Origin: Verrucomicrobiota bacterium
GTDB lineage: Bacteria; Verrucomicrobiota; Verrucomicrobiia; Chthoniobacterales; JAFAMB01
Direction of reading: 5' to 3'
DNA: 30,277 bases
Assembly: GCA_019236035.1 (NCBI GenBank)
Contig: JAFAJU010000092.1
Span: 1-30,277 of the forward strand
Made by a program: the position numbers and the translations under genes. Positions 20,343 through 24,961 of the stretch are shown here, in pieces. Each line of letters begins with the position of its first letter. Positions within the stretch are counted from its first letter, which is position 1. The notes beneath the pieces were generated by a model, which saw only the letters and a program-made list of their open reading frames with translations, was not told the DNA's origin and ran no database searches.

Positions 20343-22100
20343 TCAGTGCTTATTGGTCTTGGCGATCAAATCGTCAGCCGTGAAGATCGGTGCGGAACAA
20401 GCATTGTCGGTACACAGAAAGGCGGCCGCCCTGCTCAAGGTTGGGTACTCGACATCCGGATTTGGCAACGGACCTTCACGTTCGTCCAACCATTCTACCC
20501 GTTTGTAAGTCGCCGGATCTAGCACAGCAGCCGCAAATAGCATATTCCCAGCCGCGTCATCTTTTCGACCTACGACCGTAATATGTAATGGCGGAGATGT
20601 GAGCTCCTTGTCGGCCAGCAGTACGCCAGCCACCAGAAATCCGCGGTGATCTGTCACCGCGGGCGCCGCCAGAAAGCTCATGGCACGTACAGCTATGTCC
20701 CGGTATTCCGAATTGCCAGTGTAATGCCACAACAAATTAGCCAGCCGAACGATGCCCACATTTTCGTCCAATTGAGGCTTCGAAGCCAGCGCGCCTTGAT
20801 GTGCGCAGGTGATGTACCCAAGGTTGTTCGCAAAGTTCGCTGAGATGAACCTGGCGGCACGCTCTGCTCTCTGCAGCCAGACACGATCGGCGGTGCACTC
20901 ATACAACGTCAGAAACGCGCGGGCCATCGACAGTGTATCCCCAAGATAAGGCCCTAGGGCATCTGTATCGTCATGCCGAAAGCCGCCCTCTGGTAGCGCT
21001 CGATTGGCGCAAACCCAATTGGCCGCACGAATCGCATCACCGAGGCAATCCTTTGCACCGGAAACCGCGTAAAGTCTGGTGAGTGCGTTTATCGCCCAGC
21101 CATTCTCACGCGAATAAATGTGCGTATCGATTCGCGGTACGCCTCGCTTCCGCCGATCGGCATCGCTGAGTTGAAAGTACTCTCCGCCATGTTCACCCGG
21201 AATCAGATCTGCGTCCTGACTCGTGTAAAAAGCGCCATCCGGCGAGGTGAGAAAATCTTTTAGGTAGTTACGGATTCGGCTTGCAGCCCGCAAATAGGTC
21301 TCATCATGCCAAAATGCATAGGCTTGCGCGTAAATACGCAAATCCTCGGCCTGCATTTGCATGATCTTTTCAAAATGTGGATGCTGCCAGTCCCCATCCG
21401 TCGAATATTGGTACACACCGCCCCACGCCGGATCCATCAGATTGAGCTGGGCCGCGAGCGTCTCTCGCGCCATGCGACCAAAGGCCTGGTCGCCTTGAGC
21501 GGCCTCTGATAGGCAATACTCGATCGTGTCCCAGTCGAGAAACTTCTGAACGGTGCCCCATCCATGGTTTGTATTGTCGTAGTCGTCGATCAATAACTGG
21601 CGCAACTTGTTCCGCAAATCAGATCCCAAAGCGGTGGCGTGACCGGCAACTAAAGGCTTCTCGGCAACCACCGATGGGCCCGGGGTCGGGTCGTCAATGA
21701 TCGCTTGCAGCATGGAAGCCATCGGAAGCGGCGGCAGGTAGCCCCGCCGCTTCACAATTTCGCCGCCATCGGCGTTGAAAACTATGGTGGCGGGCCAGCC
21801 GTAATCCTCATAACGGTTCGACAGATCGGGACGTGCATCCGCGTCGACGCGCACCGCAACATAACGCTTACGAATCAGTTCAATGACCGTCGGATCCTGA
21901 TAGGTAGTCTCCTCCATCACATGGCACCAGTGGCACCAGACTGTACCGAGATCGAGCAGCACGAAACGACCTTCGTTCTTGGCTTTGGCGAATACATCGT
22001 CAGACCACGCTTGCCACTCGATACTCCCAGGCTCGGCCAACGTCCTGTTGAATGGCAGCAGCGCGAAAGCAAGTAAGATCGAAAGACCCCATTGTCTCAT
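20343..22100 (-). CDS. Secreted DUF255 / thioredoxin-domain protein (YyaL/SPATA20-like)
   Basis: Signal peptide MRQWGLSILLAFALLPFNRTLA; WCHWCHVM CxxC; GWPATIV, GGVYQYS, HFEKI, FYTSQDAD, and terminal AFLCTDNACSAP. Confidence 0.88.
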   Translation of the reverse strand: MRQWGLSILLAFALLPFNRTLAEPGSIEWQAWSDDVFAKAKNEGRFVLLDLGTVWCHWCHVMEETTYQDPTVIELIRKRYVAVRVDADARPDLSNRYEDYGWPATIVFNADGGEIVKRRGYLPPLPMASMLQAIIDDPTPGPSVVAEKPLVAGHATALGSDLRNKLRQLLIDDYDNTNHGWGTVQKFLDWDTIEYCLSEAAQGDQAFGRMARETLAAQLNLMDPAWGGVYQYSTDGDWQHPHFEKIMQMQAEDLRIYAQAYAFWHDETYLRAASRIRNYLKDFLTSPDGAFYTSQDADLIPGEHGGEYFQLSDADRRKRGVPRIDTHIYSRENGWAINALTRLYAVSGAKDCLGDAIRAANWVCANRALPEGGFRHDDTDALGPYLGDTLSMARAFLTLYECTADRVWLQRAERAARFISANFANNLGYITCAHQGALASKPQLDENVGIVRLANLLWHYTGNSEYRDIAVRAMSFLAAPAVTDHRGFLVAGVLLADKELTSPPLHITVVGRKDDAAGNMLFAAAVLDPATYKRVEWLDEREGPLPNPDVEYPTLSRAAAFLCTDNACSAPIFTADDLIAKTNKH

Positions 22101-22618
22101 GATTCTTTGTCCGTTTGTCGGGAAAGCCGTTCAGCCGAAGAATCGGACCGAGGTCCCAACCAGCGTTTTAGGATTGCATCGATCGAGAACAAGCCGGGAC
22201 CGAATACGAGCACGATCAGCGCGGCCAGCAGAAACGTAAATGGATCAGCCTTCACGAACTTATCTGGGTCACTGAATATGCTCGTGAGCGCTTCAAAATC
22301 CGCGGACACATAGGCCACGCTCATCGAAACGACGATCATTAGCGCGATCGGTCGCGAAGCCAGACCAACCATCAACAAGATGCTGCCGTAACACTCCAGT
22401 GCGCCCACAAAATAGGCGTTCACCCTTGGCAATGGTATACCAAGACTGGCAAAAAAATGGATGATCTTCCCAATGTGCGAAAGCTTCCCTTGCCCGGTCA
22501 GATAGAGCTGCCAAAAAAAGTATAGGCGCAGCGCCAATAGCAGCGGCGACTGTAGGAGATTGGCCCCGGTCACGAGCAGTTCGTACGCGCGCGATATTGC
22601 CTTTCGAATGGTATTCAT
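22097..22618 (-). CDS. DoxX family membrane protein (BufD-like)
   Basis: LLLALRLYF, FFASLGIP, ECYGSILLMVGLASR, FGPGLFSID; 4-nt overlaps with both neighbours. Confidence 0.9.
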   Translation of the reverse strand: MNTIRKAISRAYELLVTGANLLQSPLLLALRLYFFWQLYLTGQGKLSHIGKIIHFFASLGIPLPRVNAYFVGALECYGSILLMVGLASRPIALMIVVSMSVAYVSADFEALTSIFSDPDKFVKADPFTFLLAALIVLVFGPGLFSIDAILKRWLGPRSDSSAERLSRQTDKES

Positions 22619-23577
22619 GATCTGCGGCAGAACCAGCCCAGACTAGACCAGGCATCAAACCAATCTTTGAGTTGAGCCGACCAATCGATAGTCGTCCGTT
22701 CGCTCGCGGTGACTGCCTCGACGCAAGCATCTTCGACCGTCGAACCGCGCCCGAGCGATGACAGGATCGCAAACGCCTCCGGATCCAGCCGCTTGTAGTA
22801 GAGCATGTTATCGTGCCGGTGAACGGCCAGATAGACCTTCTCCCGCTTCGGCAGCCTGACACGCTTCCGGCGTACTGCAGCCTTCGGTGCGGCTTCCATG
22901 GCGTTACTCGCTTCACCGCGCAGAACGTCCGACTCACGCTTTTTCACCGCAATCAGAAAATCGTCAACGGCGCAATTCAGTTCCAATAACGAAAGGTAAG
23001 GTTGCAAGCCCAGTCGCAACTTTGCTGCCGGCGTATCAAGGATATCGTCTGGAGTGACCGGCGCTTTCGCCGGACCATCGAAGGCAACCACTTGCGCCCA
23101 CTCAAACCTTACCATGTCGAGAGCTAGTTCCTCTCGTGGTGCGCTCCACTGTGGCTCCTCTGTCAGAAACTGTTCAAGGCGGTTCCCGAGATCGCGCAGG
23201 GTGTGCGAGTTGGACGGGTACCGCGACAAATAGGCAGTCGCGAGCTTCATGAACCTCCGCTCCCCAACGACCGCGCGCAGCCCAGGGTAATCGTCATAGA
23301 GGCAGTCGAGGGTCCGGAACCAATATTGGCGATTGTAAATTTCCAATCGCTCAAACGAGCTGAGGCGATCGTTCGGCTTGATAAACTCCGACGCGACCGC
23401 TTCCATAGAAGAGCCGTCAATCCAACGCTTCTGCATCCCCCATTGTGGGTTCAGCGGACGGAAAAGCGCGTTGGCCATCGCACGTTGCAAATCGCGCAGT
23501 TGCGCTCGTGAGTTAATCTTACGCGGTAGTTGCGGCGAGCTGTTTGTCCCGAAATTTGTTGGCTTTGAGCGCTTCAT
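22615..23577 (-). CDS. DUF2063 MNIO partner protein (BufC/HvfC-like); start uncertain
   Basis: RLEIYNRQYWFRTLDCLYDDYPGLRAVVG...F..LATAYL..YPS.S..L..LG..L..FL...DMVRFEWA motif; follows DUF692. Confidence 0.85.
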   Translation of the reverse strand: MKRSKPTNFGTNSSPQLPRKINSRAQLRDLQRAMANALFRPLNPQWGMQKRWIDGSSMEAVASEFIKPNDRLSSFERLEIYNRQYWFRTLDCLYDDYPGLRAVVGERRFMKLATAYLSRYPSNSHTLRDLGNRLEQFLTEEPQWSAPREELALDMVRFEWAQVVAFDGPAKAPVTPDDILDTPAAKLRLGLQPYLSLLELNCAVDDFLIAVKKRESDVLRGEASNAMEAAPKAAVRRKRVRLPKREKVYLAVHRHDNMLYYKRLDPEAFAILSSLGRGSTVEDACVEAVTASERTTIDWSAQLKDWFDAWSSLGWFCRRS

Positions 23578-24567: not shown

Positions 24568-24632
24568 GGGGAGGGACGGTTTCTATTTCGTCCCAAACGT
24601 GCTCCGGAACGCGATAGAAACCGTCCCTCCCC
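24568..24632. repeat. 19-bp perfect inverted repeat between precursor and MNIO genes
   Basis: ggggagggacggtttctat (24568-24586) / atagaaaccgtccctcccc (24614-24632). Confidence 0.85.
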
Positions 24633-24694
24633 AGGCTATTTCCGTCACCCGGAAAGCCGAGCAACGTGAGTTTTAATTGTATATGGCCAGGACC

Positions 24695-24961
24695 TTACCC
24701 TTTACTGGCACATCCACCTTTGCCTTTGCAGGAGTTCTTACCCTTGCAGCCGTTGTCACCGGTCTTGCAGCCGCCTTGGCCTTTACACTCGTTCTGGCCT
24801 TTGCATCCGTGTTTGCCCTTTTCAGCGTCGGCCATTGTCTGCAGCGCCACGCCGGCTTTTGTACTAGTGGTGCTCGCGGCGTATGCACGTACCGCGAAGG
24901 ATCCTGCCAGAAGGCCGGCAACTGCTGCGCCGGCGATCACTGCTTTGGATGGTCTAATCAT
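24695..24961 (-). CDS. Secreted Cys-rich RiPP precursor (bufferin BufA2-like), 88 aa
   Basis: Sec signal ending AYA; core with two CKGxNxCKGxGGC repeats (6 Cys); first gene upstream of DUF692-DUF2063-DoxX. Confidence 0.85.
   Translation of the reverse strand: MIRPSKAVIAGAAVAGLLAGSFAVRAYAASTTSTKAGVALQTMADAEKGKHGCKGQNECKGQGGCKTGDNGCKGKNSCKGKGGCASKG

Follow-up and report, generated by a model that had tools for sequence, protein, structure and literature searches.

A probable Buf2-type bufferin cluster with a thioredoxin-fold companion gene in a Chthoniobacterales-like Verrucomicrobium

Bufferins are cysteine-rich, exported peptides that belong to the RiPPs (peptides made on the ribosome and modified after translation) and are matured by enzymes of the MNIO (DUF692) family. 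The only bufferin 2 (Buf2) to have been tested is that of Caulobacter vibrioides, encoded by bufA2-bufB2-bufC2 (CCNA_03001-02999). Four central cysteines of this peptide carry a mass change of −16 Da, a disulfide joins Cys I to Cys VI, the product absorbs at 305 nm, and the modification occurs in vivo; copper induces Buf2, which Fe, Zn and Mn do not, and Buf2 confers copper protection (Leprevost et al. 2024, PMC11626156). Across the family, referred to as Buf2 or Buf_6/12Cys, precursors have six conserved cysteines in 90% of cases and twelve in the rest, together with a Sec signal and adjacent MNIO and DUF2063 genes (PMC11626156; Microb Genom 2025, PMC12452194). The present analysis concerns a related locus on a 30,277-nt stretch of DNA (contig JAFAJU010000092.1 of assembly GCA_019236035.1, referred to as the window) from a member of the Verrucomicrobiota. 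The locus is very probably a Buf2-type (Buf_6/12Cys, Cys-Lys captophorin) bufferin cluster of a Chthoniobacterales-like Verrucomicrobium. As such, it adds a soil member to a family of which thousands are already on record, a finding that in itself changes little.

Several described systems resemble the locus to different degrees. With Caulobacter buf2 it shares a Sec-exported, six-Cys core of about 60 residues, Cys-Lys motifs, and an MNIO gene adjacent to a DUF2063 gene. It differs from that system in its Verrucomicrobiota host, in having no SigF/NrsF nearby, and in possessing a DoxX gene and a further gene, here named E; Caulobacter lacks the DoxX gene, although most family members have one. 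Closer in taxonomy is Opitutus terrae, also of the Verrucomicrobiota, where one Buf_6-12Cys gene lies beside DUF692, DUF2063 and DoxX genes (Table S2, PMC12452194). Shared with the Cys-Lys captophorins (MNIO-PME1 systems; ACS Chem Biol 2026, PMC13097082) are multiple Cys-Lys motifs, including the commonly occurring captophorin motif N-x-C-K-G, an MNIO with an Asp after its catalytic Asp, a DUF2063/PME1 partner, and the co-occurrence of DoxX. That survey is centred on Pseudomonadota, and the chemistry characterized there is that of Lys-Cys members only (fontiphorin, oxazolin and gonophorin).

The Lys-Cys group, which includes oxazolin of Haemophilus influenzae (HvfA, with HvfBCX), has the same precursor-MNIO-DUF2063-DoxX order, a similarly Lys/Gly-rich and repetitive Cys core, and the same presumed 5-thiooxazole chemistry. 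In contrast, its motif is E-G-K-C-G rather than C-K-G, and its MNIOs have Phe where the enzyme of the present locus has Asp. FonBC left an N-A-C-K-G substrate unprocessed (PMC13097082). Bufferin 1 (BufA1, DUF2282/PF10048) has in common with the locus the enzyme pair, DoxX, the Sec signal peptide and a presumed copper-buffering role. The present precursor, however, has six cysteines rather than four and does not match DUF2282, and no sigma/anti-sigma genes are adjacent to it.

The locus consists of five co-directional genes on the minus strand (bufA, bufB, bufC, bufD and E), with all frames intact and full length (Table 1). A first-pass annotation of the sequence had placed four of them, for a precursor, a DUF692 protein, a DUF2063 protein and DoxX, at 22097-24961, and both open reading frames and Pfam matches bear it out. 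Gene content and family membership, along with the conservation, synteny and co-occurrence described below, are direct observations. The genome to which the window belongs, a fragmented metagenome-assembled genome (MAG) that is 75% complete, holds one MNIO gene only.

Table 1. Features of the bufferin locus in the window
Feature	Coordinates	Strand	Length	Basis
bufA, bufA2-like precursor	24695..24961	−	88 aa	open reading frame, BufA2 profile match and homologues
bufA, predicted Sec-type signal peptide	24878..24961	−	~residues 1-28	read by eye
bufB, MNIO (DUF692) maturase	23519..24370	−	283 aa	PF05114, 346 bits
bufC, DUF2063 partner (PME1/RiPP recognition element type)	22615..23610	−	331 aa	PF09836, 57.5 bits
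bufD, DoxX-family membrane protein	22097..22618	−	173 aa	PF07681, 56.6 bits
Gene E, DsbH/DUF255 thioredoxin fold with toroid-like C-terminal region	20343..22100	−	585 aa	PF03190
First small hairpin, just 3′ of bufA stop	24643..24666	−		RNA fold
Long hairpin in bufA-bufB spacer, no U-tract	24567..24633	−	20 + 9 bp stem	minimum free energy
Dispersed repeat copy	24475..24534		~55 nt	42 genome matches
Repetitive extragenic palindrome (REP)-like element upstream of bufA	25188..25279		~90 nt	fold −79 kcal/mol, z −7.2

The N-terminus of the bufA product has the architecture of an export signal, with R3 and K6 in an n-region, an 18-residue hydrophobic stretch, and an A-Y-A site followed by Ala (read by eye, with no predictor). 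Residues A12, A13, G16 and G20 of the signal peptide are at least 90% conserved in 67 bufA relatives. The core that follows is about 60 residues long and Lys/Gly-rich, with cysteines at core positions 25, 31, 37, 44, 50 and 56, that is, C-x5-C-x5-C-x6-C-x5-C-x5-C. Five of these cysteines (Cys I-V) lie in Cys-Lys-Gly/Thr motifs, and Cys VI is followed by Ala. What may be called a tandem repeat consists of two 3-Cys half-units of 18-20 residues each, HGCKGQNECKGQGGCKTGDN and GCKGKNSCKGKGGCASKG. The protein has no Lys-Cys dipeptide at all, and therefore falls outside the E-G-K-C-G (oxazolin/Buf_EGKCG) type.

Relatives of bufA are numerous. A word-indexed search returned 5368 homologues at 90% clustering, the closest being from Chthoniobacterales MAGs, and an exhaustive search yielded 1426 family clusters at 50% identity. 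The 5-5-6-5-5 spacing is the entire Cys pattern in 166 of 264 retrieved homologues and is contained within most others. Exactly 12 Cys occur in 15 of these homologues and at least 12 in about 35, the 12-Cys forms being mostly two 5-5-6-5-5 modules. In a 67-sequence alignment, C53, C59, C65, C72, C78 and C84 are invariant, and the K/G/N positions that flank them are invariant or nearly so. Since the spacing recurs across the family and all six cysteines are invariant, the Cys pattern of bufA is not due to chance. The family also extends beyond the published 6/12 description: some members have 8 Cys with spacing 5-5-6-5-5-6-5, and others have 15-25 Cys, arranged as three or four modules with some CC pairs. 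Examples of these departures are P0128, P0141, P0253 and P0241, the last with 25 Cys in 190 aa.

Among randomly sampled genomes, 13 of 300 other Verrucomicrobiota and 27 of 301 Acidobacteriota carry a Buf2-type precursor. A look-up in the ESM Atlas gave only unnamed clusters from these same two phyla, and tblastn of the precursor against PLSDB plasmids gave no match. Within the genome of the window itself, a second precursor paralogue occurs on contig C527 (L002:65-388, plus strand). It is 107 aa long, 85% identical to bufA, and ends in a Pro/Ser/Thr/Ala-rich C-terminal tail; a gene for a metallo-beta-lactamase-fold-like protein comes next, and no MNIO lies nearby on this short contig.

The NCBIfam BufA2 profile, NF050166, recognizes bufA with 37.7 bits (45.4 in the genome search) and an E-value of 1.8e-9, against a cut-off of 60, and the match spans the whole Cys block. 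Because the scores are below the cut-off, proteins of this branch are labelled hypothetical in public records, and the Verrucomicrobiota/Acidobacteriota branch of precursors is thus under-counted. The profile was silent in a Caulobacter vibrioides control genome, yet matched in Lactococcus lactis; the model or its prefilter seems poorly tuned for such short, low-complexity proteins. No Pfam family matched bufA at E 0.01, and PF10048 (DUF2282) was unmatched. When the Pfam search was relaxed to E 10, only DUF7640 (15.3 bits) and DUF7107 appeared. DUF7640 (PF24646) was considered as a possible BufA2 family and rejected, given scores of 15.3/14.4 bits and control matches in unrelated genomes.

The Pfam family matched by bufB is named MbnB_TglH_ChrH/MNIO, and against the equivalog model NF050167 (MNIO_BufB) the protein scores 337.4 bits with a cut-off of 310, covering profile positions 1-261 of 262. 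Of the NCBIfam MNIO models scored, the cut-off of BufB alone is exceeded: HvfB gives 240.8 bits (cut-off 360), ApyH 82.2 (400), ChrH 51.7 (600) and MbnB TIGR04159 36.3 (325), which leaves bufB outside the methanobactin type. The motifs QHG, SDH, VEN, LDVNN, HIAGH, DTHDH and LLEWDD align with blocks of 3BWW, 8HCI and the MbnB structure 7DZ9. On the basis of published MNIO structures, these motifs presumably supply the metal ligands and the catalytic base.

The last of these motifs bears on substrate type. LLEWDD in bufB (Asp254-Asp255) stands in place of LLERDF in PDB 3BWW, a Lys-Cys-type MNIO from Histophilus. In such enzymes the first Asp of the pair is the catalytic base, and the Phe that follows is replaced by Asp in MNIOs with Cys-Lys substrates, including BufB2 with its Asp251 (PMC13097082). 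By this alignment, Asp254 is the predicted catalytic base of bufB and Asp255 its predicted Cys-Lys-type specificity residue. Given the Asp254-Asp255 pair and the five C-K motifs of bufA, enzyme and substrate show the correspondence described for Cys-Lys systems.

The genes that follow overlap at every junction. The start codon of bufC is either ATG 23610 or ATG 23577, so that it overlaps the 3′ end of bufB by 92 or 59 nt. In many relatives, the DUF2063 tblastn match likewise starts about 50-90 nt before the MNIO match ends, and the overlap suggests coupled translation of the two subunits. ATGA overlaps occur at the bufC/bufD and bufD/E junctions, with the start of gene E overlapping the bufD stop by 4 nt; gene E is in the same transcription unit as bufD and the genes upstream. 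Against models from the oxazolin system, bufC is a weak match to HvfC (32.8 bits, cut-off 142) and bufD scores 58.9 bits with the HvfX family (cut-off 80).

Synteny was assessed by scanning one genome per species, which gave at least 584 related stretches, of which the best 80 were examined. These come from Verrucomicrobiota (Chthoniobacterales, Opitutales, Methylacidiphilales and Prosthecobacter), Acidobacteriota and one Eremiobacteraceae MAG. Where at least 3.2 kb of downstream sequence was available, in 69 loci, a flank of about 7 kb was searched. An MNIO gene is present in 67 of the 69, nearly always directly downstream of the precursor, a DUF2063 gene in 66 and a DoxX gene in 62. With each gene given by its letter, the order is ABCD in 52 loci, ABC in five, ABCDE in four, EABCD in two and BCDEA in one, and the operon layout in the window is therefore the standard one. 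Genes for a ureohydrolase-like protein and a GNAT protein upstream of bufA were considered as cluster members and rejected, as their synteny does not extend beyond the closest relatives, L004 and L006.

Taken against these results, the first-pass annotation holds up in class and falls short in novelty. It had described an exported, Lys/Gly-rich precursor with the six-Cys spacing given above and a bufferin-type MNIO RiPP; the former is confirmed, with a signal peptide read by eye, and the latter is supported by the NF050167 score of bufB and the homology of bufA to BufA2. It had also called the precursor and the operon a variant. This part is not supported. The tandem-repeat 6-Cys block is the conserved unit of the whole family, which includes duplicated 12-Cys forms as well; motifs of the Cys-Lys type have been catalogued before (PMC13097082); and the ABCD operon is both the prevalent layout and already on record from Opitutus terrae. 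Its suggestion that the system may be uncharacterised is literally true of the soil sub-family, while the architecture class is catalogued. The comparison that it had proposed with profiles of known precursors yielded a BufA2 match, albeit below 60 bits, and none with BufA1/DUF2282; on the oxazolin side, the scores for HvfB, HvfC and HvfX are all below their cut-offs. Finally, it had held that identity in architecture to a characterised BufA2 would count against it. At the level of architecture (an exported protein with six Cys in a core of about 60 residues) the precursor does coincide with that of Caulobacter, although the Caulobacter numbering implies tighter spacing.

The gene that goes beyond the published core of precursor, MNIO, DUF2063 and DoxX is gene E. 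Its product has a signal-peptide-like N-terminus, matches PF03190 (Thioredox_DsbH) with 90.4 bits (gathering score 27), and carries the motif WCHWCH. Matches of the C-terminal region to six-hairpin families are weak and sub-threshold, and PDB 7TKV is the nearest solved relative (84 bits). All 18 E-type sequences compared, which span two phyla, keep C56 and C59 of the CHWC motif and C563 and C568 of a C-terminal CxxxxC. An exact-sequence look-up of gene E gave no record. A canonical YyaL-type copy lies on contig C71 of this genome; its PF03190 score is 266 bits, that of E is 92, and gene E is a divergent paralogue of the C71 copy. Five other genomes that were examined have one E-type gene each (608-832 bits), and four of them also have a weak canonical-type copy (49-86 bits when the genomes were searched). 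Like the YyaL/SPATA20-type DUF255 proteins and chlamydial DsbH, E has a PF03190 thioredoxin fold with a C-H-W-C-H motif. It differs from them in its signal peptide, its invariant C-terminal CxxxxC, and its occurrence only in those sampled genomes that have Buf2 precursors.

This last point comes from a search for E made independently of the buf genes in samples of 300 other Verrucomicrobiota and 301 Acidobacteriota genomes. E was found in two of the former, in both cases directly after DUF2063-DoxX, and in eight of the latter (at least 578 bits). Three of the eight Acidobacteriota genes are buf-linked (in the orders E-A-B, D-E and A-B-x-E); for the other five, no linkage appears within 8 kb, or within as much of that distance as the contig covers, and their neighbours have no common theme. 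All eight E-bearing Acidobacteriota are nonetheless among the 27 genomes with a Buf2 precursor, for which a naive hypergeometric estimate is about 1.5e-9, an overstated figure since relatives are not independent. In all, 10 of the 10 other sampled E-bearing genomes also hold a Buf2 precursor, and E lies beside Buf2 genes in four layouts. In searchable papers, neither thioredoxin nor DUF255 is mentioned alongside bufferins. Gene E is thus a recurrent Buf2 accessory that was not found described in the literature searched.

The recurrence of gene E points to a periplasmic redox step. Tentatively, and with a likelihood that we place just short of even, E is a dedicated periplasmic redox partner of Buf2 bufferins that sets the disulfide/thiol state of the thiooxazole peptide. 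Candidate jobs may be to close the Cys I-Cys VI disulfide, or to maintain the thiooxazole sulfurs in a reduced, metal-binding form. E may exchange electrons via the translationally coupled DoxX membrane protein, and its linkage may in turn offer a handle on DoxX function.

A mechanism for the whole cluster can be proposed by homology to Caulobacter Buf2, fontiphorin, oxazolin and gonophorin; its chemistry, metal and redox role are inferred. A complex of BufB, as a multi-iron MNIO, and BufC, as a DUF2063 protein resembling a RiPP recognition element, would bind the precursor in the cytoplasm. Using O2, the complex would catalyze four-electron oxidation of several Cys-Lys cysteines, each becoming a 5-thiooxazole with a change of −4.03 Da. 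The modified precursor would then be exported by the Sec route and its signal peptide removed. The resulting Lys/Gly-rich product of about 60 residues would stay in the periplasm, chelating copper via its thiooxazoles and buffering metal stress, while DoxX and gene E probably manage its thiol/disulfide state. By analogy with Buf2, the four central cysteines would be modified and Cys I and Cys VI joined by a disulfide. The sequence would allow four modified sites or five, because Lys follows each of Cys I-V but not Cys VI.

Several observations weigh against the assignment to Buf2 or against the function that it implies. The precursor and 67 of 67 sampled relatives score below the NF050166 cut-off of 60 bits, and Buf2 membership of the soil sub-family is read from sequence. 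The Cys span is 31 residues here and 26 as implied by Caulobacter Cys24-Cys50, a comparison made by published numbering only. The AlphaFold2 model of bufA (67-row alignment) has a mean predicted local distance difference test score of 52.9, with no confident structure in the core and a Cys pairing that is not readable, unlike the confident small fold described for Caulobacter BufA2. The window is devoid of copper-responsive regulators, of copper-resistance genes and of sigma/anti-sigma pairs. No promoter was identified upstream of bufA either, where a sigma-70 scan was empty on the coding strand and site counts did not exceed those of shuffles. Lastly, the dispersed repeat between bufA and bufB might affect read-through.

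An unlikely but not negligible alternative accepts the enzymology in full and assigns the product a role other than copper, either with another soft metal (Hg, Au, Ag, Zn or Cd) or as a buffer of redox state or oxidants in the periplasm. Fusions of MerC with Buf2 in clusters for mercury detoxification (PMC12452194) speak for such a role, as do the responses of DUF692/DUF2063 operons to gold/copper stress and to calcium stress (cited in PMC8692599). The locus, moreover, has no copper gene or regulator nearby and is linked to two thiol-redox proteins, DoxX and gene E. Set against this is the specific copper induction and copper protection of Caulobacter Buf2, and fontiphorin, oxazolin and gonophorin, too, are regarded as peptides of copper or oxidative stress (PMC13097082).

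It is very improbable that the six-Cys peptide stays unmodified and serves as a metallothionein-like, Cys/Lys-rich metal binder of the periplasm, with the MNIO pair acting elsewhere or not at all. Stand-alone precursors do exist, on contig C527 and in L011, L013, L018, L057 and L058, and some orphan precursors are possibly unmodified (PMC12452194). Yet an MNIO gene accompanies nearly every one of the 69 loci counted above, bufB holds the residue reported to pair with Cys-Lys substrates, and the Caulobacter peptide is modified in vivo. A copper-buffering Buf2 product remains the preferred reading of the locus.

The spacer between bufA and bufB contains two hairpins and a repeat (Table 1). The long hairpin has a folding energy of −72 kcal/mol (z −7.2), which none of 200 shuffles matched, and is unique in the genome. 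The three closest relatives (L004, L005 and L006) have both hairpins at the same place, and in L006 the stem differs in sequence. A strong stem-loop 3′ of bufA was seen in 11 of 14 related loci with inspected folds, with U-tracts in L010, L014 and L022. The post-bufA hairpin is a candidate attenuator or 3′-end stabiliser that, by analogy with RiPP operons, probably yields more precursor mRNA than enzyme mRNA. Rfam matches in the region, all to microRNAs and on long hairpins that include the REP-like palindrome upstream of bufA, were rejected as spurious, being far below gathering scores.

The dispersed repeat, which is distinct from the REP-like palindrome, lies inside a lineage-specific insertion of about 160 nt, which brings the bufA-bufB spacer to 324 nt, compared with 145-165 nt in L004-L006 and a median of 111.5 nt over the 72 loci measured. 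An operon decaying or silenced through this insertion could be imagined, the more so in a fragmented and incomplete MAG. Such decay is nevertheless highly unlikely, as the five frames are intact, catalytic motifs are conserved, the ATGA couplings are kept, and REP-like elements, present between many genes of this genome, leave the genes unbroken. A RiPP that leaves the cell as an antimicrobial or a signal, for which RiPP logic and the attenuator-like hairpin after the precursor gene, as in bacteriocin operons, might be cited, is scarcely credible: the cluster lacks genes for a leader peptidase, an ABC exporter and immunity, the precursor has a Sec signal peptide in place of a RiPP leader and a core as large as about 60 residues, and characterised relatives are periplasmic.

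On the 5′ side, the REP-like palindrome lies between bufA and the operon upstream, so marking where the buf unit is bounded, and is not buf-specific; it has 71 matches (both strands counted) on about 45 other contigs of the genome. A block of about 150 nt upstream of bufA is conserved in the two closest relatives only, and GTAACC and GGAATAA boxes were noted by eye, although they are not claimed as a promoter. On the 3′ side, a gap of about 670 nt separates the operon from a gene for tRNA-Asn (GTT) on the minus strand (19598-19672); the gap holds a short open reading frame (~19754-19930) and terminator-like hairpins (20035-20051).

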